From: Candidatus Micrarchaeota archaeon
Lineage (GTDB): Archaea; Micrarchaeota; Micrarchaeia; Anstonellales; Bilamarchaeaceae
Assembly: GCA_038046765.1 (NCBI GenBank)
Contig: JBBSVN010000004.1
Span: 32,001-96,000, forward strand
Length of the DNA stretch: 64,000 nucleotides
Reading direction: 5' to 3'
Shown: piece by piece, positions 7,245 through 40,204 of the stretch
How the letters are laid out: every line of letters begins with the position of its first letter
Position numbering within the stretch: position 1 is the first letter of the stretch
Position numbers and translations under genes: made by a program
Notes under the pieces: generated by a model
What the model was told of the DNA's origin: nothing
Databases searched by the model: none
Seen by the model: only the letters and a program-made list of their open reading frames with translations

Positions 7245-8468
7245 ATGAAAAAAGTAATTGGCAATTTATTCCTGGTTTTGTTTGTAGTGTTTTTTTTATT
7301 TGGATGTTCTGGAAATACACAACTACAAGATAAAGTTGTGAAAGACGAAATTGCTAAAACAACCCAAAGTGAATTAAATCAAACAAATCAATCGGATCAG
7401 ACCCAGATTATAAATTCTAAAGAAAACTCAGTTAATGTGCAAACGAATAATACAAATGAAAATACGGTTTCAAATTCTAATTCGCAAACGCTTCCGCTTT
7501 TATCACTAGGTGATGGTAAATATTCTACATCTCTTAAAGCAGGGTATGTTTATACCTGTAACGCTAATTTTAATGGAGGAGGTGCGTTTAAAGCAGGAGA
7601 ATGGATTAATGGAAGCTTTTGGAATGCATCTAAAAAAGTAACTGTTGATGGAAGTGTAAGCTGGCCAAAGAATTACATTAGTATCGAACTATCCGGCGAC
7701 ACAAGAACAATAAAAACAAACGGCTTACCAAGTCACAAAACCGGAAACTACCCAATTGCAACTAACGATGACGCATATAATTATGACCGAAATCCAAACT
7801 CGATTAAAGAGCAAAGTTTTACGCTTAGTGTTCCTAAAGATCCAATAGTAGTTAACGCACCTTATTGTACCAGTTTGGGAATAATCGCAATTTCTACAAC
7901 AGGAGTTCCGATATTTAACGGTTTTGACGCTGGAGGAAGGGATGCAGTAGCAAATGAAATTCAAGATGTTTGTGATGGCCACCCAGATATAAGTGGGACA
8001 TATCATTATCACTCTGGAAGTAGCTGTATACTAGATTCTTCAAAAGGCGAAACTCATTCTGATTTAGTTGCGTATGCGATTGATGGGTTTGGCTTGTATG
8101 GTAAGTATGGTGAAAATGGCAAACTTTTATTTACAAAAGACCTTGATGAATGTCATGGACACACACATATAATTTTATGGGATGGTAAAACTAAAGAAAT
8201 GTATCACTACCACAGTAGCCCAGATTTCCCATATACGATTTCTTGTTTTAGAGGTACAAAAAGTACAGTTAGCGGAGAAACAGTTGTTTCTGGGTCAACA
8301 AATTCTGCGAGTAATGGTCAAACTCCACAGGCACCTTCTGCGCCTAAAGAAGCAATAGATGCTTGCGTTTACAAAAAAGAAGGTAATTCGTGTAGCTTTA
8401 ATGGAGCACGCGGAATGGTTTCTGGTACGTGTAAAACAACTTCAGATGGATTTGCATGTGTGCCTTAA
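7245..8468 (+). CDS. YHYH-domain secreted/lipoprotein
   Basis: Signal peptide ending LFGC; two D-x-C-x-GH...YHYH motifs; DGFGLYG. Confidence 0.85.
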   Translation: MKKVIGNLFLVLFVVFFLFGCSGNTQLQDKVVKDEIAKTTQSELNQTNQSDQTQIINSKENSVNVQTNNTNENTVSNSNSQTLPLLSLGDGKYSTSLKAGYVYTCNANFNGGGAFKAGEWINGSFWNASKKVTVDGSVSWPKNYISIELSGDTRTIKTNGLPSHKTGNYPIATNDDAYNYDRNPNSIKEQSFTLSVPKDPIVVNAPYCTSLGIIAISTTGVPIFNGFDAGGRDAVANEIQDVCDGHPDISGTYHYHSGSSCILDSSKGETHSDLVAYAIDGFGLYGKYGENGKLLFTKDLDECHGHTHIILWDGKTKEMYHYHSSPDFPYTISCFRGTKSTVSGETVVSGSTNSASNGQTPQAPSAPKEAIDACVYKKEGNSCSFNGARGMVSGTCKTTSDGFACVP

Positions 8469-9511
8469 ATCTTCATTTTTTCTATCGCTTCGTTAAGTAA
8501 ATCTTCGTTTTGGTTAACACAAATCCTTATGAATTTTTTATAATTCCCAAACCCACCCCCTGGCGATACGGCAACTCCTTTTTCTAAACAGGAAAGCGCA
8601 AACTCCCCGGAATCAGTTATGTCCGCTCTGGTTGCGAATACATATATTCCAGATTGTGGTTTTGCAAATTTAAACCCATTTTTTGTCAGAGCTTTTTCTG
8701 CAACTTCGAGCCTTGCTTTCCATAGATTTCGATTTTGTCTAATTATTTCTTCTTCGTTTTCTAAACAGGATAATCCAGCCATTTGGACAAATGGTGCAAC
8801 GCAGGTTGTCGTGATCTGATTAAATTTCACAATTTTCTTAACAATATCTTTTGGCGCGATTGCATAACCTAGCCTCCAACCTTCCATATTAAACTCTTTA
8901 GAAAATGAACGAACTCTTATCGCACCCTCATATCTTGAAATTTTTGTAAAAGACAATTCCTTATATGCTTCATCAAGTATTACATGATTTCCTTTTTTAT
9001 TTGCGTTTTCAATAACGTTTTTTATTGATTGATCAGTATAAACTGTACTTGTGGGATTAAGCGGATTGCAAATAACGGTTATTTTTGAATCAGGCATCTT
9101 GTGCGAATCAAACTGCCAATTACCCTCAAGCCCAGTTTCGATACCATGGAATTTCAAACCAAGCTGTTCGCAAGCTAACTGATAAGCAGGCCAGTATGGG
9201 CCAGGTGTAGTTACGCTTTCGTCTTTTTTTGCCAAAATATTTAATAATGCAAATATCAAATGTTTTGAACCAGGACCGACTACAACTTCATCAATATCGC
9301 AATTTTCCCGCTCGGCAATTTTTTGTCGGAATTCATTTATTCCAGCTCCTGAAACGTAACCGGATTTCGTTTCTTTAATTGATTTAATTGCTGCATCAAT
9401 TGCGGGTTTTGGTGTCGGCAAATTAGTGTCTCCGATGTTTAGTTTTATTATCTTCCTGCCAATTCTCTCAAGCTCAAAAACTTTTTCAGCTAATTCGTAG
9501 AAAGTTACCAT
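8465..9511 (-). CDS. PLP-dependent class I/II (aromatic/aspartate) aminotransferase
   Basis: NPLNPT, DEAY, SFSKEFNMEGWRLG; last gene of the aro/phe/tyr operon. Confidence 0.9.
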   Translation of the reverse strand: MVTFYELAEKVFELERIGRKIIKLNIGDTNLPTPKPAIDAAIKSIKETKSGYVSGAGINEFRQKIAERENCDIDEVVVGPGSKHLIFALLNILAKKDESVTTPGPYWPAYQLACEQLGLKFHGIETGLEGNWQFDSHKMPDSKITVICNPLNPTSTVYTDQSIKNVIENANKKGNHVILDEAYKELSFTKISRYEGAIRVRSFSKEFNMEGWRLGYAIAPKDIVKKIVKFNQITTTCVAPFVQMAGLSCLENEEEIIRQNRNLWKARLEVAEKALTKNGFKFAKPQSGIYVFATRADITDSGEFALSCLEKGVAVSPGGGFGNYKKFIRICVNQNEDLLNEAIEKMKI

Positions 9512-9516
9512 AGAAT

Positions 9517-10332
9517 TTACCCAATATTTTTCCTTAATTTATCAAAAAATCTTTTAGCTTCTTCATAATCTTTTGCTTTGATTACGTGTTTTAAAAACTC
9601 CAACCGATTGGTTATCTTTTCAAGTTGAGCTAGCGAATAGCTATTAAAAAGGATTTCGGCTAGTAAGTGATCATCTTCTGATAAAAGCCCCTTTGCAATT
9701 GTTTTATGTCTTTTAAATGTCGTACCAGGAACTGCAGTTTTATCCATGCATGAAGCAAAAACTAACGATGAAGCAAACGGAGTAGTTAGTGAATAAGCCA
9801 TCATCTGATCATGCTCTGCAAATGTATACTCAAATATTTTTACCCCCAACCTAGTAAAGAGATTTCTAAAAAATTCTTTAGTTTCTGGATCGCTTTCTTT
9901 TATTAGTACAGCATTTTCCTCTTTTAATGAATCCATCGTAGCAAAAGTTGGTCCGAACATCGGATGGACGGAACAGAACTTAAAACCAGATTTATTATAG
10001 AATTCTTCCAACCCGCGCTTAACCGAAGCAACATCGCCAATTACACAAGATTTTGGTAAATATCTGACTACTTCTTCAAATGCCTTAATTGTATTTTGCA
10101 AACTTACTGCATTTATTAGTAAATCAGGTGCAAATGATGAAATTTCTTCGATCGTATGCAAAGCGTTTGTATTAGTTTCTTTGGCAACTAATTCCGCTCT
10201 TTTTGAGTCATTATCATATACAGCGATATTAGTCCCATTTTCTTTAGCTAGTTCTTTAGCAAGAAAAGAACCCATCTTCCCGCAACCGATTATTGCGACT
10301 TTAGTTATCATTATATCGCCTCTTTGTAACAT
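9517..10332 (-). CDS. tyrA: prephenate dehydrogenase
   Basis: GCGKMG Rossmann motif, DVASVK, HPMFGP, EHDQMMA. Confidence 0.9.
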   Translation of the reverse strand: MLQRGDIMITKVAIIGCGKMGSFLAKELAKENGTNIAVYDNDSKRAELVAKETNTNALHTIEEISSFAPDLLINAVSLQNTIKAFEEVVRYLPKSCVIGDVASVKRGLEEFYNKSGFKFCSVHPMFGPTFATMDSLKEENAVLIKESDPETKEFFRNLFTRLGVKIFEYTFAEHDQMMAYSLTTPFASSLVFASCMDKTAVPGTTFKRHKTIAKGLLSEDDHLLAEILFNSYSLAQLEKITNRLEFLKHVIKAKDYEEAKRFFDKLRKNIG

Positions 10333-11375
10333 CCTAAAAACTTAAATGTCGGACTTTCTTTTTTGATTCTTTCTAATAATTCTGCAATTTTTTTATCCTT
10401 GTCACTTCCTTGGAAATCAACTAAAAACACAAACTTACCCGGGTCGTTTGGTACTGGCCTTGATTCGATTCGTGTTAAGTTTGTCTTACTTTCGTAAAAC
10501 AGCTTAATTATTTCAAAAAGTGCTCCTGGCTTATGCGCTGTAGAAAATATTATCGAGCATTTATTACCTACTTCTTTACTGTAATCTTTGGATAATACAA
10601 CAAAACGAGTAGTGTTTGAAGTATGATCTTCGACATTCTCCTTTAAAACTTCTAGATCGTATAATTCGGCGCATAATTTACTTGCAATTGCAGCAGCCCC
10701 GTTTGGTTTATCCTTTGCAACCATCATCGCAGCACCAGCAGTATCATAATACGGCCTTGCTTCTAGTTTATTTCGCTCTGTAAACCCGCGGCATTGTGCT
10801 AATGCTTGGGGATGAGAATACACCATTTTTATTTCACGATAATCTGTTTCAGGAGGTGCAAGTAAACAATGATGAACTGGAACCCGCACTTCGCCAACGA
10901 TTTTCAAGTCATATTGTATTAGTAAATCATTTACATCATTTATCTGCCCAGCTAAAGAGTTTTCTATAGGTACAATACCTAGATCTAACTGACCATTTTT
11001 AACGCTTTGAAAAACTTCTGTAAAATCACTACATGGAATTGCTACGGAATTAGGGTCATGGGTTTTTACTGCCATCTCACTATACGCTCCATGTTCGCCT
11101 TGAAATCCGATTAACTTTAGATTTTCTTTTTGTAATCTTTTGGATTCAGACATTATTTCTTGGAATAACTTTTGTGAAAACGCATTTGAAATTAACCCCT
11201 TTGACTTTGATGAAATTTTGGTCATCACATCTTTTTCTCTTTGTTCGTCACTAACTTCATTTTTAAGTTTTTTTGTTCGTACAGCAATTTCCATCCTATC
11301 GCTTAGTAATTCCAGTATATCGCCATCAATTTTGTCTATTTTTTTCCTTAGTGTGTTTAATTCCATATTTATCAC
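10311..11375 (-). CDS. pheA: chorismate mutase / prephenate dehydratase (P-protein)
   Basis: N-terminal AroQ LRKKIDKID; PIENSLAG, SHPQALAQC, NTTRF, ACT domain LTRIESRP. Confidence 0.95.
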   Translation of the reverse strand: MINMELNTLRKKIDKIDGDILELLSDRMEIAVRTKKLKNEVSDEQREKDVMTKISSKSKGLISNAFSQKLFQEIMSESKRLQKENLKLIGFQGEHGAYSEMAVKTHDPNSVAIPCSDFTEVFQSVKNGQLDLGIVPIENSLAGQINDVNDLLIQYDLKIVGEVRVPVHHCLLAPPETDYREIKMVYSHPQALAQCRGFTERNKLEARPYYDTAGAAMMVAKDKPNGAAAIASKLCAELYDLEVLKENVEDHTSNTTRFVVLSKDYSKEVGNKCSIIFSTAHKPGALFEIIKLFYESKTNLTRIESRPVPNDPGKFVFLVDFQGSDKDKKIAELLERIKKESPTFKFLGCYKEAI

Positions 11376-11405
11376 CTAAACGTAATTTTTTTCTTATTTT
11401 ATTAT

Positions 11406-13787
11406 TTATTTTATTGAGCATATAGATCGCAAATACAAATCTAGTATTGCAATAGCAACAGTATTTTCAACAATTATTGGTGCTCTTATTGCAACGCATG
11501 GGTCATGACGACCAAGTACACTTAATTTAGCATTTTTATTTGTTCGCACATCTATCGTGTCCTGTTCTTTTGAGATTGATGAGGTTGGCTTTATCGCAAC
11601 CCTGCAAACTAATGGCATGCCATTTGTAATACCACCTTGTATGCCTCCAGAATTATTTGTCGTTGTAATAACCGACCTACCTTCGATCGTAAATGCATCA
11701 TTATTTTGACTTCCCCTAGTTGCTGCACCGGCAAAACCCGAACCAAATTCAACTCCCTTAACCGCTGGAATGCTAAATAAGTATTTTGAAAGAACAGCGT
11801 CTACTGCGTTAAAAATAGGCTCGCCAATTCCAACAGAAAGTCCATGAACTTGCAGTTCGATTACACCGCCAAGCGAGTCGCCTTCTGATTTTATTTTCTC
11901 TATTTCTTGTTGCATTTTTGCGCTTAATTCTAAACTAGGACACCTAACGGGGCTTTTATATGTATTAACTAAAGCTTGTTCAAAGCTAGGCATTTTTTCC
12001 ATTTTTATTTCTCCGATTTGTTTGACATATGCTGCAAATCTTACTCCTTTTTCTTCAAGAATTTGTTTTGCAATCGATCCTGCAATTACTGTAAGTGTAG
12101 TAATTCTTGCAGAAAGGAACCCACCACCACGAAAATCAAAAACGCCATTGTATTTGATTAGAGTAGTGTAATCTCCATGGTTTGGCCTTGGAGTAAATCT
12201 AGTTATTTCGTATGGTTTTGAATTTACGTCCTTGTTTTCTATTTCAAATACAATCTGCTCGCTGGTAACGACTCCGTTTTCGATACCTTGCACCAAACTA
12301 AATTCATCTCGCTCCCTCCTAGAAGTCGTAAGGTTTCCAAATGGTCTTCTTTTGTCTAAATCGACACGTATTTTTTCCATGGAAACTTTTGTTCCGATTG
12401 GAATTCCGGTCATTTTTATTCCGATTAGTTTTTCATGCGAACCTCCGTAAAGACGCACTTTGAACTCTTGACCAATTGGTGCAGTCTGGCTAAGCATTGT
12501 CGCACCCAATTTTCGCATATCACAAAAGAAATCAGGGTAAGATTTTGCAATAACTTCGGGATTTTCTATAATTGTTTGTCCATCCGCAATCATGCCAGCA
12601 ATTGCACACGACATTGCGATCCTATGGTCATTATGTGGATCTATTTTCGCACCATGCAGACGAGTAACTCCAATTATTTCTAAAGAATCGGGTTTTTCAG
12701 TGATTTTAGCTCCCATTTTAGTTAATTCGGTGGCTATGGAACTTAATCGATCGCTTTCTTTTATTCTAAGCCTTCCTGCATTTTTAATTTTTGTTATTCC
12801 TTTTGCTTGCGTAGCAATTGTAGCTAATATCGGAACTAAGTCTGGAATATTACTTGCATCGATTTCTGTTGCAATTAATTCTGACCTTTTGACTACTAAG
12901 GAATCTTGTTTTTCTTCGATCTTAGCACCCATTCTTTTAAGAATCGAAATAATTTCACGATCGCCTTGAATAGACTGCACATTCAATCCTTTAATTTCAA
13001 TTTCTGGACCAACAATAACTCCTGCAGCAATTAAAAATGCAGCTCCGGACCAATCGCCTTCAACAATATAGATGCCAGGTGATTTGTAGAATTGATTGCC
13101 TTTGATCGTGAATTTTCTAGGATTTGTTGGGTCGTCCATTTTAACATTTATTCCAAAATCATTTAGAGTTACAATCGTCATTTTAACATAAGAAAATGAC
13201 TCTAAATTTCCTAAAATTTCAATTTCGCTATCTTTTTTGGCTAAAGGTAATGCTAAAAGAAGGCCGCTTATGAATTGAGAGGACACATCCCCACGAATTT
13301 GTATCTTTCCTCCGATTAATCCCCCCGCTATTTTTACAGGGGACAAATTAGAACGATCATCTATTTTTGCACCTACTTTCTTTATTGAATTAGTTAAGTC
13401 ACTAATTGGTCGTTTTAGTAGTCCTGCTTTACCAGTTAAATTTATTTGATTATTGATAAGTGCGCAAATTGGAATCAAAAATCTTAAAGTTGTACCAGAT
13501 TCATTGCAATCGATAGTTAAAATATCATTGATTTTTTTGAACATGATATTGTTGGATCCGTCAACTTCAATGCTATTTTCAGTATAATCAATTTTAGCCC
13601 CAAGAGCTCTTAGTGCACTAATTGTGGCAGATATATCACTGGAAAACAGTGGATTTTGTATTAAGGTTTTTCCCTTTGTTAAGCCGGCTGCAAAAAGAGC
13701 ACGATGAGTATAACTTTTAGATGGTGGTGCAGCAATTGGACTGTTTTGAAGTTTTGAGTTTCGTACTAATATCTCCAGTTCACTCAT
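11406..13787 (-). CDS. aroA-aroC: fused EPSP synthase (AroA) - chorismate synthase (AroC)
   Basis: PPSKSYTHR, SSQFISGLL, LRIKESDR, DHRIAM (AroA), then GGSH, RPNHGD, SARIT, NNSGGIQGG, RHDPC (AroC) in one 793-aa ORF. Confidence 0.93.
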   Translation of the reverse strand: MSELEILVRNSKLQNSPIAAPPSKSYTHRALFAAGLTKGKTLIQNPLFSSDISATISALRALGAKIDYTENSIEVDGSNNIMFKKINDILTIDCNESGTTLRFLIPICALINNQINLTGKAGLLKRPISDLTNSIKKVGAKIDDRSNLSPVKIAGGLIGGKIQIRGDVSSQFISGLLLALPLAKKDSEIEILGNLESFSYVKMTIVTLNDFGINVKMDDPTNPRKFTIKGNQFYKSPGIYIVEGDWSGAAFLIAAGVIVGPEIEIKGLNVQSIQGDREIISILKRMGAKIEEKQDSLVVKRSELIATEIDASNIPDLVPILATIATQAKGITKIKNAGRLRIKESDRLSSIATELTKMGAKITEKPDSLEIIGVTRLHGAKIDPHNDHRIAMSCAIAGMIADGQTIIENPEVIAKSYPDFFCDMRKLGATMLSQTAPIGQEFKVRLYGGSHEKLIGIKMTGIPIGTKVSMEKIRVDLDKRRPFGNLTTSRRERDEFSLVQGIENGVVTSEQIVFEIENKDVNSKPYEITRFTPRPNHGDYTTLIKYNGVFDFRGGGFLSARITTLTVIAGSIAKQILEEKGVRFAAYVKQIGEIKMEKMPSFEQALVNTYKSPVRCPSLELSAKMQQEIEKIKSEGDSLGGVIELQVHGLSVGIGEPIFNAVDAVLSKYLFSIPAVKGVEFGSGFAGAATRGSQNNDAFTIEGRSVITTTNNSGGIQGGITNGMPLVCRVAIKPTSSISKEQDTIDVRTNKNAKLSVLGRHDPCVAIRAPIIVENTVAIAILDLYLRSICSIK

Positions 13788-15120
13788 TTTTTACACCTTT
13801 TATTAATCCTAAATTTATGGCTTCGCAAATTATTTGAGTTGTAACCTCTTGAGGCAATTTGTCTTGGGTTGAAATTATTACATCACAAGCTTCTGCATAT
13901 AATCCTAATCTATTTTTCATTACTTTTCTTAAAATTCCTAACTTATCGGGAAAATTTACCAAGGGTCTGCTTTGATCCCCGATGGTCCTATTAACGATTG
14001 TTTCGGGTTTTGTATAAAGCCAAAAAACCAAACAATGTTTTTTTAGTTTTTCTACATTTTCTATGTCCAAAATTGCACCGCCCCCGCAGGAAATAACTGA
14101 ATTCTGGGCGTGAGCAATCTTACTCATTTCTTCCTTTTCTAATTCCCTAAATTTTGTTTCACCATGAATTTCAAATATATCTTTTATTTTCGTTCCATTT
14201 ATAGTTTCAATATTCTGGTCAACATCGATCAGTTTTAGGTTAGTTTCTTTGGCAATTAGCTTTGCTACTGTAGATTTACCAGAACCCATTAGACCAACTA
14301 AAGCAATATTTTGCGGTTTTGCATGTGCCTTAGCTAATACTTTTCGCATAATTTCTATAGGAGCAGTCTTACCAGTAAAAATCTCAAATGCTTTTACACC
14401 TTGGTAAAGCAACCATTCGCTTCCGTTGATAATTTTGCAACCTAGTTCGATAGAATCTGTTAAGAGTGCTGTCTTTTTGGAATAATTTGCATCTAAAACT
14501 ACTAATTCTTTTGAGAGGAGTTCTTTTGGAATTAACTGGTCGAGCGTATTTGCTGTGCTAACAATTGCAACTGCATTTACTAAAGCTTGCGTTAAATCTG
14601 AACTAGATAAAGAACAATAATCGCAACCTAGCCTATTCGCAATATCTTTAGCTTTTTCAATTGTTCGATTCGCAATTACAACCTGTGCCCCCTCTGAAAG
14701 TAAACCTAACGCAGCAGCTTTTGCAGCGCCTCCAGCTCCAATTACAACGAATTTATTTCCGTTAATTTTTACCCCATTTGCTTCAAGTGCTTTGGTAACT
14801 CCTAGGACATCGGTGTTAAATCCATGGAGTTTACCATTTTCTATTTTTATTGTGTTTACTGCACCAAGTAATTTAGCTTCTTGATTTAGTGTATCGCATT
14901 TTTGTGCCATTTCTTCTTTGAACGGCGCAGTAATATTTAATCCTAAGATTCCTAAGTCTTTTGCAAGCGCAATAGCTTCATCCGCATTATTTGCAGCAAT
15001 TCGTACGTATTTGGCATCTATACCTAATTCTTCAAGTCCAGCATTATGCATGTTAGGGCTAAGGCTATGTGAAATAGGATTACCCACAACTGCGTAAAGT
15101 TTCATGCTTTCTTGTTTCAT
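13780..15120 (-). CDS. aroE-aroK: fused shikimate dehydrogenase (AroE) - shikimate kinase (AroK)
   Basis: HSLSP, NITAPFK, NTD, GAGGAA, then GLMGSGKS, FRELE, GGG, RPL. Confidence 0.93.
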   Translation of the reverse strand: MKQESMKLYAVVGNPISHSLSPNMHNAGLEELGIDAKYVRIAANNADEAIALAKDLGILGLNITAPFKEEMAQKCDTLNQEAKLLGAVNTIKIENGKLHGFNTDVLGVTKALEANGVKINGNKFVVIGAGGAAKAAALGLLSEGAQVVIANRTIEKAKDIANRLGCDYCSLSSSDLTQALVNAVAIVSTANTLDQLIPKELLSKELVVLDANYSKKTALLTDSIELGCKIINGSEWLLYQGVKAFEIFTGKTAPIEIMRKVLAKAHAKPQNIALVGLMGSGKSTVAKLIAKETNLKLIDVDQNIETINGTKIKDIFEIHGETKFRELEKEEMSKIAHAQNSVISCGGGAILDIENVEKLKKHCLVFWLYTKPETIVNRTIGDQSRPLVNFPDKLGILRKVMKNRLGLYAEACDVIISTQDKLPQEVTTQIICEAINLGLIKGVKNE

Positions 15121-15121
15121 G

Positions 15122-15787
15122 TCAATTACCTAAATTTTTTCTTAAGTTTTTAATCGCTTCTTCAAGTGTTTTTTTGTCGATTTGCCCATCGGCAGTTTCT
15201 TTACCCGAGGATAACGAAACGTAAGTACAAAAACTCCCTAAAAGAGGAGCAATTATTCTTGTAATTTTTCCCTTTTCACCCATACCAATTACAATTAATT
15301 TTCTATCCAAGTCGCTTTGATCAAGTAGCCCAATTAGCCTCGCATTATCCCTCTCGTCATTGACTTTACAAGCTATTTTTGCAATATCTGCTCCGTCTGT
15401 AAAGCACCAATTTATTGTTTGCTTTAATTCTTCTCTTGAAGGCGTTTTTTCATAGTTATGGTATGAAAGAATAACTTTGCATCGCCTCGCTTTAGCAGCT
15501 GCAATAATTTCTTGTTTTATTTTATCTTCAGATTCAATTTCAACATCGACAAAATCTGCTCCTTGTTCTATTGCTTTAAGTAGGATTTCTTTTCTTTGTT
15601 GCTCATTCATCTGATTGTTAGGCCGGCATGTCGCGATCATCTTAGTTTTTCCTTTACTTGAAAGCAGATTAGATAAGTCAGTTAGCGAAAGTTTATTCTG
15701 ATCGAGCCTAAGTTCTGCTAAATCTAAACCTAAAAGTGCTGATTTACATTTTTCTAGTCCAACTTCAGCTATGCTAACACAGATCAT
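15122..15787 (-). CDS. aroD: 3-dehydroquinate dehydratase, type I
   Basis: ELRLD, SYHNYEKTP, DIAKIA, MGEKGKITR, ADGQI. Confidence 0.92.
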   Translation of the reverse strand: MICVSIAEVGLEKCKSALLGLDLAELRLDQNKLSLTDLSNLLSSKGKTKMIATCRPNNQMNEQQRKEILLKAIEQGADFVDVEIESEDKIKQEIIAAAKARRCKVILSYHNYEKTPSREELKQTINWCFTDGADIAKIACKVNDERDNARLIGLLDQSDLDRKLIVIGMGEKGKITRIIAPLLGSFCTYVSLSSGKETADGQIDKKTLEEAIKNLRKNLGN

Positions 15788-16812
15788 AGAATTTCACCAA
15801 TTTCTTCAATCGGAACTTCTTTCACAACTGATTTTCCAATCCCTTCTAAAAGCGCCATCTTAACATCAGTTCCTTTTTTCTTTTTGTCTTTGCTTATTGC
15901 ACCAATTATTGCATCTTTTTTAATATAATCTAACTGCGTTGGAAGTCCCAATTTTTTCAAAAGATTTTCGATTCTATCCTTATCCTCTTCTTTTAATGTG
16001 CCTTTTTTAACGCAAAGCTTTGCATCATAAACTGACCCTATCGCAACCGCTTCTCCATGAGGTAATTTATGTACTTTTTCTAGTGCATGAGCGATCGTGT
16101 GCCCAAAATTTAATTTAACCCGTTCATTTTGTTCTAATTCATCTTTTTGAACAATGTTTACTTTAACCGAAATTGCATCGCCAATTACTTTTTCAAGTGC
16201 AATACGTTTCATGCAAATAATATCCTCCAAGTTCGACTCTAAGTATGAAAATAAATTAGCATCAGCAATTACTGCGTGTTTTACAATTTCCGCAAATCCG
16301 CATTTTAGGTCTTCTTTTGGAAGCGTTTTTAGAAGTTCTAAATCGCATAAAACGAAATTTGGTTGTCTAATAGTACCAATTAAGTTTTTGTATCCATTTA
16401 AGTTTACCCCATTTTTACCCCCTATACTTGCATCTACTTGAGCTAGAAGTGTTGTTGGAACAAAACCAAATTTTAAACCACGTAAATAGGTACTAGCAAC
16501 AAACCCAGTTATATCGCAAACTACGCCCCCTCCAACTCCAACTATAAAAGTTGAACGCTCAACACCTAATTCTAGAAACTGCTCGTAAATATTCTCAACT
16601 GTCCTAAGGGTTTTTACATTTTCACCAGTTTCGATTTCAATTATTTGAAATCCGAATTCTTCGAGCTTGACGCGATGGTAATTTAACACATTTTTATCAC
16701 TAATAATTACTACTTGTGCACTTGCATCTAGGTAGTCTTTAAGGTTAGATACGTCTTCGCCAATCGCGATTTGCGTACTACCCGTATTTGTAGTTAATTG
16801 TATTTTTTTCAT
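15784..16812 (-). CDS. aroB: 3-dehydroquinate synthase
   Basis: [33 protein letters not shown]. Confidence 0.95.
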
Positions 16813-17630
16813 AAAGAACTCCTCATAAAATTATCAAGCGCCCGAATCTTTTTAGTCATTTTTGTAAAATACGCTGGCGTGAGTGCCTGATCTTTATCGC
16901 AAAGTGCTTCTGGGGGATTTCTATGAACATCTACAATTAATCCATCTGTCCCGCATGCTACTGCCGCTAAACTCATCGGCTCGATTAAAGTTATTTTTCC
17001 AGTAGCATGGCTCGGGTCAACAATGATTGGAAGATGAGTTAATTCTTTAACTGCAGGTACTGCACTTAGATCAAGGGTATTTCTAGTGTAAGTTTCATGA
17101 GACCGTATTCCTCTTTCACATAGAATTACATTTGGGTTTCCTTCGTTTAAAATGTACTCTGCGCAGTATAACCATTCTTCGATTGTTGAATACATTCCTC
17201 GTTTAAGTAATACTGGTTTGTTTGCTTTACCTACTTCCCTAAGTAATGAGAAATTCTGCATGTTTCTTGTTCCAATCTGAAGTACATCTGCGTATTCACA
17301 TACCCAATTTACATCTCTGGTATCTACTACTTCAGTTACGATTGGTAAACCAGTTACATCCCTTGCTTTTTCTAAGATTTTTAAGCCCTTTAATCCTAAA
17401 CCCTGGAAAGCGTATGGCGAAGTTCTTGGTTTAAACGCGCCTCCGCGAAGCATATCCGCTCCTGCTGCTTTTACCGCGATTGCAGTTTCTACAGTTTGTT
17501 CTTCACTTTCAACAGCGCATGGGCCAGCGATTATCGTTAACCCTTCACCTATTTTTACATTGCCAACTTTTACGATTGTTCTGCCGCTTCCGTTTAAACC
17601 GGCAAGTTTTATTTTTTTAATATCAACCAT
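16809..17630 (-). CDS. aroF: DAHP synthase, class I-beta, without fused regulatory domain
   Basis: [20 protein letters not shown]; 273 aa. Confidence 0.93.
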
Positions 17631-17738
17631 TTTTTACACCTTGAATAAATTTTAGTTTTTCATTCCAATTTTTGTTTTCTCTTCAAATATAAAATATCAA
17701 AAAGCTAAAAAAATAAAGTTAACACTAAGGATTTTTTT

Positions 17739-17797
17739 AAAAACGCAACCAACACAAAAATTATTTTTTAAAATTTTTATTAAAAATTGTTAGTTGC
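17739..17797 (-). terminator. candidate attenuator terminator upstream of the aro operon
   Basis: Minus-strand GCAACTAACA (17797-17788) pairs with TGTTGGTTGC (17754-17745), one G-U, followed by GTTTTT. Confidence 0.5.
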
Positions 17798-17799
17798 AC

Positions 17800-17901
17800 T
17801 CAATAGTTAAAACTAAATCTAAAATTAAAGCTGAAGCTATAGAACCAGTTTGCATTTCTTGCAATTTTATTTAATGACATTTTGTCTTCAGCGTTTATCA
17901 T
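17800..17901 (-). CDS. putative aromatic-amino-acid leader peptide (MINAEDK)MSLNKIARNANWFYSFSFNFRFSFNY
   Basis: Manual translation; ATG at 17901 or 17880, TGA at 17802-17800; 9 of the last 15 codons are W/F/Y. Confidence 0.6.
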   Translation of the reverse strand: MINAEDKMSLNKIARNANWFYSFSFNFRFSFNY

Positions 17902-18132
17902 TGTACTCAACCAACTAAGTTTCTCCAATCTAATACCTTAGAACTATCCTTTTGGATTGAGGACAGATCGAGATCGGCATATTTCCTGATCTCGAGATAT
18001 TAACACATTTTTACACTATTTATACAATATTATCCATAAAAGTATTTTTAAATGTTCCTGATTTAGAAACTAATTCTAGCTTCGCTTCGGGTAAAGCTAT
18101 ATTTTAAAACATTAAAGAGGTAAAATATTTTT

Positions 18133-18519
18133 ATGAAGTCCAAAATTATAATTGAAAAATATTTCAAAGCACTCGAAACGGGAAATTATGAACAGATGAT
18201 AAAATTATTCACACCAGATGCAGTAGTTCATTCTCCAGTATATGGTAATGTAAAAGCAAACGAATTTTATAAGAAATTATTTTCTGATACGTCTGAATCA
18301 AAAATTATATTATTAAATATTTTTGAAGGCAAAGACAACTTTACAGGCGCATGCCATTTTATGTATGATTGGAAACTTGCCAATGGAAAAGATATTTCTT
18401 TTGAATGTGTTGATGTATTCAAATTTTCTGATAGTGGACTTATCAAGGAACTTACAATTATTTATGATGCATCAGCGACTAGGCCAGCGCTCAAAAGGAT
18501 AAATAAAAATACAGGTTAG
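18133..18519 (+). CDS. SnoaL/NTF2-like protein
   Basis: YFKALE...LFTPDAVVHSP; VDVFKF...GLIKELTIIYD. Confidence 0.8.
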   Translation: MKSKIIIEKYFKALETGNYEQMIKLFTPDAVVHSPVYGNVKANEFYKKLFSDTSESKIILLNIFEGKDNFTGACHFMYDWKLANGKDISFECVDVFKFSDSGLIKELTIIYDASATRPALKRINKNTG

Positions 18520-25463: not shown

Positions 25464-25497
25464 GCCAAAGTAAATCCCTTTTTCCTGTATTCTGCAA
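25456..25497 (-). promoter_or_regulatory. trpE leader ORF MQNTGKGDLLWLA* containing a candidate Trp-sensing +1 frameshift site
   Basis: GAGGTG-N6-TTG CAG AAT ACA GGA AAA GGG GAT TTA CTT TGG CTT GCA TAA; +1 frame TTT GGC TTG CAT is the trpE frame. Confidence 0.6.
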
Positions 25498-25565
25498 ATC
25501 TAGCACCTCAATAAAATTATTTTGATTAATAATCGAATTGCTGTCTAGCATATATTTAAACATTT

Positions 25566-26084
25566 GTGTACAAAAATATACATATGCTCGATATTCTTGA
25601 AAAATTCTTTGAAAATGCACGAGGAAGGAAACTTGTTGCTATTGAATTTTTACGTTTAGGATTAAAGGTAGATGGAACAGGTAAGATATATGTTGGTGAA
25701 ATAGAAATAGCTCCCACTAAGATTGGTAGAGCACTTGGAGTTGACCGGAGAGTAGTAATAGAAACAGCAAAAGAAATAGCGAATGATGAGAAACTACTAC
25801 AAATATTTTACAAACTTGAATCAAGGTCATTTATTGCGAATGCAGCAAAAGAATTTGGTTTTGATGTGGTTGAACTTAGAGCTAATCCAAAAGCAAAAGG
25901 AATTGTAGCAGAAGTTACTAAGATTTTAGCTGATTGCGGAATTGTTATTCGTCAAATTATAACTGATGATCCAGAATTATTTCCTGATCCTGTTTTGACA
26001 ATCATAATTAATGGAAAACTTAATGCAAAAGTAGTAAAAAAACTGAAGGAATTAAGTTTTATGGAGTCATTGAAGATCAGATAA
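25566..26084 (+). CDS. archaeal amino-acid metabolism regulator with ACT domain (COG2150-like)
   Basis: IGRALGVDRRVV HTH-like segment; GIVAEVT...IRQIITDDPEL; divergent from trpE. Confidence 0.8.
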   Translation: MYKNIHMLDILEKFFENARGRKLVAIEFLRLGLKVDGTGKIYVGEIEIAPTKIGRALGVDRRVVIETAKEIANDEKLLQIFYKLESRSFIANAAKEFGFDVVELRANPKAKGIVAEVTKILADCGIVIRQIITDDPELFPDPVLTIIINGKLNAKVVKKLKELSFMESLKIR

Positions 26085-38752: not shown

Positions 38753-39825
38753 TTATATCGGAAACAAACCATTAAATTTTGCAATAACTCTTTTGCGAAA
38801 TTTATAAGTGTCGGCAAATTTGGCATAAGCTAGCCAACCTTCCAAACTTTGCAAAACTTCTGATCGATTAATTTCTCCTTTTTCATATTTCTGCTTAAAT
38901 TTTTCTAATCGTTTCCATATTCTTCCTGAATTACTTTTCTTTAACAAACGATATTTTGGAAATATCCTAAAACCTAAGAAAGTTACTCCTCTTTTTATCG
39001 ATATTAATCGGGATTTTTCAGGATGCAACTCGAGCATCAATTTTTCCTTCAAAAAAATATTGAGTTCATTCTTCCATTTTTGCAGAATATTTTTATCTCT
39101 GTGTAGAATTACAAAATCATCAACATAGCGAATGTAGCATCTTGCTTTCAATTTATGTTTTACAAACTGATCAAGTTCGTTGAGATAAACATTTGCAAAG
39201 AATTGAGAGGTTAAATTTCCAATAGACATACCTTTTCCTTGAACTGGATTCTTGTAATTTTCCAATATTTTTCTTATTAGCAAAAATACAGCCCGATCTT
39301 TTATCTTTCGTTCAATTATGCCCAGTAAAACTTCATGATCTACAGTGTCAAAATAATGCCGAATATCAGCTTTAAGGACATAACCAATTACTGCATTTTC
39401 AGAGCTCTCTCTCTCTCTTCAAATTTTTGGTGGTTAAGTGTGGTCTTTCTCAAGAATTGTTCAAACCGATTAATGGCGTTGTGAGTTCCTTTTCCTTTTC
39501 TGTTTGCAAATGAATCAAAAATAAAATCTTTTTCAAAAATAGGGGAAAGTATATTACATATTGCATGGTGAACAACCCTATCCCTAAAGTAAGAAGCACT
39601 TATCTTTCTTGTCTTTGGATCTCTTACAATAAAGGTACTTAGTGGGGAGGGCGAATAGGTAAACTTTTCTAATTCGTTACTGAGCTTGATTAAATTCTGC
39701 TTTAAATCAGATTCAAATTCTATTACGTAATCCTTCAGGGTTTTCCTTTCCCTTGCCTTTTTGAAGGCAAGTTGGAGGTTTTCAATGGAACATATTTGAG
39801 AATACAAATTCTTGTAAACTTTCAT
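38753..39825 (-). CDS. DGR reverse transcriptase, split by a frameshift at an (AG)7 tract (39405-39418)
   Basis: Frame 1 from ATG 39825: KTRKIS, FRDRVVHHA, SFANRKGKGTH. Frame 2: YVLKADIRHYFDTVDH, GMSIGNLTSQFFANVYL, YIRYVDDF, FLGFR. Removing one AG gives a 356-aa ORF. Confidence 0.92.
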
Positions 39826-39856
39826 AGATGTCAAGTCCCATGGGCTGTAAGCCAGA

Positions 39857-39947
39857 GTCATTTCGTAACCGTTGTCGTGCCTTCTGTTGGCATTGACATT
39901 CTGCCTGTTGATGTCGTTCCTGTTGAAGTTACGGATCAAAGGGCGCA
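39857..39947 (-). repeat. DGR template repeat (TR)
   Basis: 91 nt, AAC-rich; 17 mismatches to 40416-40506, all at TR adenines on the minus strand. Confidence 0.95.
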
Positions 39948-40204
39948 GAGGTAACCCATCCACTCTAGCAAGCTGCAATTAGATTGCAGATTGCAACGGT
40001 GCCTAGCACCAACACCACAGTTTCACGTTTTCATCAAGCTAGACTACTTGGTGTCACTGTTGAATTTCATTGAGAAATATTTAGATTTCAAAATAGTGAA
40101 AATTTCTAAAGATTTTCATTCATGTCTAACTACCAAAAGGTAGCTAGCACTGTGGATGAGTGTGTGGCCCTAAGCTTACAACCTAGGGAAAAAGATAAAG
40201 AAGG

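Follow-up and report, generated by a model that had tools for sequence, protein, structure and literature searches.

The window analysed here is a 64-kb stretch of DNA (C4:32001-96000) from a 1.5-Mb genome that is 90% complete, and its minus strand carries an aro operon with aroF in first position. After aroF come, in order, aroB, aroD, an aroE-aroK fusion, an aroA-aroC fusion and a chorismate mutase-prephenate dehydratase gene, and the operon closes with a prephenate dehydrogenase-like gene and an aminotransferase gene, both with profile matches below curated cut-offs. This gene set covers the common aromatic pathway together with the Phe and Tyr branches. The two fusions occupy window positions 11406-13787 (aroA-aroC) and 13780-15120 (aroE-aroK) on the minus strand. 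Because the neighbour beyond the aroF intergenic region (18133, plus strand) runs divergently, the aro operon needs its own promoter within that region, and a TATA-like box there puts the predicted transcription start at about 18025-18022. The operon and its leader are laid out as follows.

8465-16812, minus strand: the rest of the aro operon, after aroF (gene list and profile matches)
16809-17630, minus strand: aroF, DAHP synthase without an N-terminal ferredoxin-like domain (TIGR01361 and NF006421, above cut-off)
17637-17642, minus strand: SD of aroF, AAGGTG (read from the sequence)
17800-17901, minus strand: leader ORF of 33 codons, MINAEDKMSLNKIARNANWFYSFSFNFRFSFNY and a stop codon (ORF list; family conservation)
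17847-17803, minus strand: aromatic sensor stretch of the leader ORF (codon count)
18045-18052, minus strand: TATA-like box, TTTAAAAA (sequence; context match to loci L011, L085 and L094)

The word AGGTG is 15-fold enriched before the gene starts of this genome. The best relatives of aroF are Candidatus Micrarchaeota records, for which the tree labels name the phylum Microcaldota, and in a quick aroF tree bacterial and archaeal rows are intermixed on weak forks. No match to the PF18152 domain was found anywhere in this 90% complete genome.

An initial annotation of this DNA had described an aromatic-rich ORF roughly 170 nt before the DAHP synthase gene. Both parts of that description stand: the 15 codons at 17847-17803 contain one Trp, six Phe and two Tyr, and the ORF ends 169 nt before the aroF ATG at 17630. 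In dinucleotide shuffles of the 502-nt intergenic region, nine aromatic residues in 15 codons appeared in 3 of 3000 sequences, and nine with all three kinds present in none of 3000. The accompanying caveat that AT-rich DNA inflates such codons was a fair one, as the ORF is only moderately unusual in this genome: seven aromatic residues in 12 codons were reached by 41 of 3000 of the shuffles, and a small ORF with at least seven aromatic residues in 12 codons lies in 11 of the 629 upstream regions of the genome. Since ORFs of this kind are not rare in an AT-rich genome, the case for a leader rests on conservation.

A second copy of the leader lies outside the window (C4, about 135120-135232, minus strand; locus L151). 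It has 36 codons ending in YCFFYFGL, is partly decayed, shares the promoter context, has a weak hairpin at its stop codon and precedes an orphan gene of 251 amino acids. Searches with the orphan protein returned no homologue except itself and no Pfam or NCBIfam match; its first residues recall the N-termini of regulatory DAHP synthases, with a profile E value of 0.9 that is not significant. No other cognate leaders were evident in this 90% complete genome, in which hisD and ilvD were not found.

The trp operon is separate from the aro operon (window 25463-19841). A TrpY-family gene (window 25566-26084, plus strand; NF053754, 150 bits, under the cut-off of 180) runs divergently from trpE, and the word TGTACA, which we take to be the TRP-box consensus, occurs at 25572-25567 within the trpE/TrpY-family intergenic region (25464-25572). 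It seems that the trp operon uses a repressor and the aro operon a leader. The TRP-box motif was also used for a promoter scan of the leader family; TRP-box-like pairs were present at the promoter in 4 of 39 leaders by a narrow pattern, and this candidate was set aside. Elsewhere in the window, two ORFs (38753-39978, minus strand) hold reverse-transcriptase-like sequence with a YVDD motif, of the kind seen in diversity-generating retroelements.

The leader family in related archaea

The loci sampled comprised 80 from a species-genome collection and 30 + 40 from the 70 matching genomes in a 401-genome phylum sample. The initial annotation had pointed to the regions upstream of aro operons in relatives as the place to look, and with the window excluded an aromatic-rich small ORF of the same family was found in 39 of 42 distinct archaeal loci with a short DAHP synthase. 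By threshold, 36 of the 42 had a small ORF with at least six aromatic residues in 12 codons no more than 450 nt upstream, compared with 4 of 42 when the antisense strand of these loci was scanned. The figure of 39 was reached by eye, removing L100 from the 36 and adding L047, L098 and L107, which are below the ORF threshold but belong to the family on inspection, together with L011, whose leader is 462 nt upstream. The three loci without a family leader are L100, L104 and L034, and in L034 aroF directly follows another gene. In L100 and L104 (genomes G017 and G326) the intergenic region before aroF lacks the leader ORF, an apparent loss of the leader in one sub-clade; L029 is their neighbour in the tree.

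The core motif of the leader is [FY]-S-F-[SG]-Y, kept at 25-55% GC, and the family leader persists in loci with a GC fraction of 0.45-0.55. It is spread over several families of the class, and among the 35 matches further off (L116-L150) 12 were judged by eye to carry a similar leader. Some of these distant leaders precede DAHP synthases with a ferredoxin-like regulatory domain, with PF18152 present in all five genomes tested. A link between the leader and a DAHP synthase lacking a regulatory domain, as had been proposed, therefore does not hold, because similar leaders also precede enzymes that bear PF18152.

Structural tests used 39 leaders, namely the window and 38 relatives, with L022 omitted as a near copy of L021; these leaders were chosen for having a leader, and kin among them are not independent. 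Phe occurs in all 39, Tyr in 38 and Trp in 29, and all three aromatic residues are found in 28 of the 39, so that the view of a cognate-codon leader heading an aromatic operon is upheld. The last 15 codons contain on average 7.2 aromatic residues in frame and 0.5 and 1.5 in the other two frames, the frame having been selected on this feature. At several loci (L001, L002, L007, L023, L088, L092, L095, L096 and L098), CAG replaces TAG at the usual stop; there the ORF runs through the whole 5' arm of the hairpin described below and the peptide ends in QENH or QENR. In 24 of the 38 relatives the leader AUG is preceded, 44-67 nt upstream, by a TATA-like word; by the loose pattern used, 9 relatives lack one.

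A conserved leader mini-gene thus precedes the aro operon in Micrarchaeota. Judged from these sequences, the family is very probably a ribosome-read aromatic sensor of some kind, and it is likely that what the ribosome senses is the supply of Phe, Tyr and Trp.

Predicted helices of the leader RNA and the ribosome's position

The predicted folds of the leader RNA contain a helix inside the ORF (P1) and a hairpin at the stop codon (P2).

18002-18006, minus strand: original leader SD-like word GTGTT (region 0), at present separated from the AUG by about 100 nt (alignment)
17830-17892, minus strand: helix P1 inside the ORF, predicted, 17892-17886 paired with 17836-17830 (MFE fold)
17788-17797, minus strand: P2 5' arm (region 3), 2 nt after the stop (fold)
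17755-17787, minus strand: P2 loop, 33 nt of A/U with U-tracts (sequence)
17745-17754, minus strand: P2 3' arm (region 4) (fold)
17739-17743, minus strand: U5 run one base after the stem, the terminator tail of the initial annotation (sequence)
17719-17729, minus strand: region 5, a semi-conserved YUAGWG-type motif (alignments, folds)

In P1 the FSFSY codons are paired with the first codons of the ORF. Across the family this duplex averages -12.3 kcal/mol, compared with -7.6 kcal/mol when shuffled, and none of 5000 permutations that swapped partners between leaders did as well as the matched pairs, kin not being independent in this test. Leader ORFs avoid U5 runs, holding 0.08 per ORF versus 0.46 under synonymous resampling, which speaks for the termination model given below, although P1 pairing may account for it as well.

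For P2, the initial annotation had described a 10-bp stem followed by a U-run and called it terminator-like. The stem, with one G-U pair, and the U5 run are both there; the loop is 33 nt long, and the terminator scan lists no site. The stem of the window has a z score of -2.7, and 2 of 200 shuffles fold as well; across the family, P2 averages -16.3 kcal/mol versus -6.7 kcal/mol for dinucleotide shuffles, and in 33 of 39 leaders none of its 20 shuffles does as well. P2 loops range from 13 to 43 nt, and 32 of the 39 contain a U4 run. The loop and 3' arm are the most U-rich part, with a U content of 0.53-0.54 that drops to about 0.3 behind them. In the folds, among them one with W19 in the A site, P2 can be extended by pairing of region 5 with the stop and the codons just before it. 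The 5' arm begins between 21 nt before and 5 nt after the end of the stop codon in the 39 leaders, and this stop-to-P2 geometry stays constant while the distance from P2 to the aroF start runs from 27 to 409 nt.

A third helix, P0, pairs region 0, the leader SD region, which resembles the 3' arm, with the P2 5' arm in 28 of 39 leaders. In alignments of the relatives, the region 0 equivalent (GTGGT or GTGTT) stands a few nt before the leader AUG, and GGTGA, GGTGT and similar words are enriched before gene starts of the present genome. Matched P0 pairs exceed swapped pairs modestly (3 of 5000 permutations as good without the window; median p of 0.02 with one leader per clade). The effect is modest because region 3 pairs with SD-like sequence generally: it is anti-SD-like, giving -6.3 kcal/mol with the aroF SD region and -7.4 kcal/mol with region 0. 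P0 can form before the 3' arm exists in 27 of 39 leaders and wins at equilibrium in 8; P2 prevails at equilibrium in the other 31. In the window, the original region 0 gives only -3.2 kcal/mol with the 5' arm.

The fold of the whole 283-nt leader is no better than its shuffles (z of -0.12), and RNAalifold on a 26-row MAFFT alignment returned three pairs, no covariation and no consensus structure. As the helix arms are out of register in the MAFFT alignment, per-sequence helices and shuffles were used. A swap test of the two P2 arms (3:4) was circular and was set aside. Rfam 15 covariance models gave no matches at the gathering score in seven loci and none at E values up to 5 in window positions 17550-18150. 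A box C/D K-loop after P2 was considered and rejected as inconsistent when the alignment was inspected by eye.

The trpL/pheL layout that had been claimed for this leader is not borne out by the position of the ribosome. A passage in PMC7261190 places the archaeal ribosome footprint edge 15-16 nt from the P site. With the stop codon in the A site, the terminating ribosome overlaps the hairpin in all 39 leaders, covering 4-16 nt of the P2 5' arm, and a U-run (at least five U in the 8 nt after the helix, counted regardless of loop length) follows the hairpin in 1 of 39. Stalling would leave the 5' arm free at codons at least 12 nt upstream of it, which holds for 175 of 188 Phe, 53 of 95 Tyr and 22 of 29 Trp codons; a Trp codon is far enough upstream of the arm in only 22 of the 39 leaders. 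The 3' arm is 0.08 unpaired on a stall at a core codon (mean of 39 leaders). The initial annotation had also proposed that TTAGTT (17816-17811) pairs with AACTAA (17795-17790) as an alternative to the stem. The two words are complementary, but the pairing does not displace the stem, as folds with ribosomes stalled at W19, F23, F27 and F31 keep all 10 bp; at these four stall positions in the window, no 2:3 anti-terminator that displaces the hairpin was found.

Since full translation would hinder P2 and stalling would allow it, P2 acting as a terminator would have the wrong sign for a biosynthetic operon. The sign would be right if P2 is read as the ON fold, and the wiring first proposed for this leader is probably inverted. 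The element probably works like a leader-peptide attenuator and is outside the trpL/pheL structural class.

Candidate outputs of the leader

aCPSF1/FttA, a CPSF73 homologue, is a cleavage-type terminator, and its gene is present in this genome (TIGR03675, 827 bits). Our best model, to which we assign a probability of about 0.5, is that stalling lets P2 form and mask an archaeal terminator read as a U-tract or by aCPSF1, and that run-through melts P2 and transcription stops. When amino acids are plentiful, a coupled ribosome would reach the stop codon and cover the 5' arm at the time when the loop and the 3' arm emerge, and after its release P1, together with P0 in most relatives, would delay P2. 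The U-tracts would then stay open, and aCPSF1/FttA cleavage or oligo-U release would end the transcript some 20-60 nt past the stop. When amino acids are scarce, the ribosome would stall on aromatic codons upstream of the 5' arm, P2 would form once the 3' arm emerges, and RNA polymerase would continue into aroF.

What is described of archaeal termination is compatible with such an arrangement. Archaeal terminators are U-tracts that do not strictly need a hairpin, in the relevant passage of PMC8716108, and FttA prefers a U at -23 together with U-rich RNA from -30 to -36, in that of PMC11616081. The spacing taken from the FttA structure, a 3'-arm U preceded 7-13 nt upstream by U-rich RNA, is present in 32 of 39 leaders. 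The corresponding score averages 5.3 in leaders and 3.1 in shuffled leaders, and it is often reached elsewhere in this AT-rich genome, by 67% of 496 flanks at gene ends and 55% of 370 at gene starts. The 3' arm is predicted to be 0.52 unpaired in the OFF state against 0.08 on stalling, a difference that comes partly from removing its partner, and the loop U-tract is largely unpaired in both states. Because P2 beats P0 at equilibrium in most leaders, the OFF state would rest on timing and kinetics. The same excerpt of PMC11616081 puts forward the hypothesis that FttA is shut out by a coupled ribosome; loading of FttA would then have to follow immediately on ribosome release. It is plausible, though at somewhat less than even odds, that Micrarchaeota have a class-wide ribosome-mediated attenuation of their own, in which the leader ribosome gates aCPSF1/FttA by melting a hairpin at the stop codon, archaeal-built and not a borrowed bacterial attenuator.

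The same sensor could instead have a translational output, with the ribosome melting P2 and the freed pyrimidine loop and 3' arm folding over the aroF RBS. Mycobacterial poly-Cys leaders have a translational output of this type. In the OFF fold, opening the aroF start costs over 1 kcal/mol more in 19 of 39 leaders and less in 1, the mean added cost is 1.8 for the 28 short spacers, and single folds of L003, L004 and L005 pair the loop with the SD. However, a shuffled loop and arm give the same effect (mean difference of -0.03, positive in 12 of 39), the window shows no effect (7.5 versus 7.8), and the spacers to aroF vary 15-fold and reach 409 nt. SD occlusion as a general output was rejected on the failed shuffle control, and the translational alternative is in our judgement unlikely. 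Termination fits the output better than SD occlusion does.

Slightly more doubtful is the reading in the initial annotation, by which P2 itself is the terminator and folds once the ribosome has left the stop codon, unless a ribosome stall or an alternative pairing keeps it from forming. The five U after the stem in the window, the standing of P2 as the equilibrium fold in 31 of 39 leaders and the 42 of 95 Tyr codons that lie less than 12 nt from the arm, where a stall would cover it, are all in its favour. Nevertheless, at least five U in the 8 nt after the helix occur in 1 of 39 leaders, and in the window the helix takes up three of the U. A classical terminator, meaning a short-loop G+C hairpin with a U tail, was found in 0 of 39 archaeal leaders and in 13 of 14 bacterial ones, a comparison in which the bacterial set consists of 14 aromatic leaders hand-picked from the same search and the 15-nt loop limit of the scan excludes most P2 loops and biases the archaeal count. 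Stalls at W19 to F31 in the window keep P2, and most Phe stalls in the family leave the 5' arm free.

The leader of this genome carries a repeat element that its aligned relatives do not have at this position.

17903-17998, minus strand: inserted two-hairpin repeat element of about 96 nt, ends uncertain by a few bases (genome repeat profile)
17995-17988/17975-17968, minus strand: repeat hairpin 1, part of the inserted element
17961-17952/17914-17906, minus strand: repeat hairpin 2, part of the inserted element
C1:4965-5067, C3:49384-49437, C5:45210-45260, C7:14002-14043, C8:52657-52708, C9:811-860 and C10:116417-116453: further copies of the repeat (first-hairpin profile)

The profile of the first hairpin has eight matches in the genome including the leader copy, six of which built the profile, and C1:4967-5067 aligns to the inserted repeat over its whole length (E of 0.004). 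The family could be a real sensor of which this copy alone has been disabled or made constitutive by the insertion. The repeat parts the original SD and region 0 from the AUG and supplies the bases before it; it adds an out-of-frame ORF of 16 codons (17980-17930), and the new SD-like bases are paired inside the repeat. Against this, the ORF, P1, P2 and region 5 are intact, the predicted opening cost of the leader start is 5.8 kcal/mol, equal to the mean of the relatives (5.8), and the repeat ends in words enriched before the starts of this genome (GTTGA, TTGGT). A disabled copy is improbable, to about the same degree as a P2 terminator or slightly more so. As the repeat has displaced P0 and the original SD, the switch may have been retuned in this genome, and it may still work without P0, since the predicted accessibility of its start matches that of the relatives. 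An apparent co-change of regions 0, 3 and 4 in the window was dropped, as the 8-nt match derives from the repeat and pairs within it.

That the peptide itself matters, as a TnaC-like nascent-chain arrest sensor of free amino acid or as a small trans-acting protein, is highly improbable: an F-S-F motif does recur in archaeal and Desulfobacterales leaders, but the length, N-terminal half and C-terminal end vary freely, the stop codon is lost in several loci, and an RNA-level constraint is indicated by the Ser codons near the leader end, which are AGY in 68 of 79 cases versus 222 of 506 in aroF.

Relation to known leaders and regulators

For leader-peptide attenuation to work, translation must keep time with transcription, and a natural switch of this sort, conserved and compact, would offer a direct test of functional transcription-translation coupling in archaea. 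The gating of aCPSF1/FttA by ribosome position and RNA folding could be tested in the same way. The case also indicates that a costly biosynthetic pathway is retained and regulated in some small DPANN archaea. We found no archaeal leader-peptide attenuator in the literature searched, which consisted of open-licence papers and bioRxiv; older comparative genomics could mention one. The main texts of a review of archaeal coupling (PMC8116511) and one of termination (PMC13675443) contain no word beginning with "attenuat-", and in PMC12482152 such a word occurs in the references only. As far as we could find, leader-peptide control has so far been described only in bacteria.

In trpL, pheL and pheM of E. 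coli, the first helix lies inside the ORF. Like the archaeal leader, these are short ORFs with cognate codons, as summarised in a section of PMC11802643. The same paper also covers the closest described case, the aroR-aroF attenuator of Corynebacterium glutamicum (Neshat et al. 2014, as summarised in PMC11802643). There too, a DAHP synthase operon is headed by a leader containing Phe and Tyr codons, and stalling raises transcription; unlike the archaeal leader, it is bacterial, its codons are Phe-Tyr-Phe only, and the response reported there is to Phe and not to Tyr. The model proposed here resembles Salmonella mgtL/mgtA and corL/corA, where, according to a passage of PMC12360218, full translation unmasks a termination-factor site and stalling favours a resistant fold. 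Those systems employ Rho with a rut site and sense Mg2+, whereas in the archaeal case aCPSF1/FttA or oligo-U would do the reading and aromatic tRNA charging would be sensed; we do not propose that the systems are homologous. A passage of PMC6737238 gives TrpY of Methanothermobacter and Tar of Thermococcus as the regulators known for aromatic genes in archaea; they control the same pathway but are DNA-binding proteins that act at initiation and not RNA leaders.

The aromatic leaders of Desulfobacterales, Bacteroidota and Chlorobi share with the archaeal ones a short ORF of cognate codons and a first helix inside it. The archaeal hairpin differs in sitting on the stop codon, with a U-rich loop of 13-43 nt and no conserved tail, whereas the bacterial leaders have a short-loop G+C hairpin with a U tail that begins 16-64 nt after the stop (13 of 14).

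A conserved GRFFFSFRSVHP leader precedes aroF in Desulfobacterales and kin (L032, L040, L041, L045, L055, L064, L067-L069 and L073), and leaders of this Desulfobacterales type are followed by two tandem terminator-like hairpins. Tyr-rich (RYYLYYY) and Trp-rich (WWWRWW) leaders stand before DAHP synthase genes in Bacteroidota/Chlorobi (L025-L027) and in deltaproteobacteria (L076, L077 and L079). In Thermoplasmata (L020 and L035), a short ORF 250-300 nt before aroF ends in (L)F(Y)SYRY and has a U/C tract immediately behind its stop; it may be an element of this kind in a further archaeal phylum.
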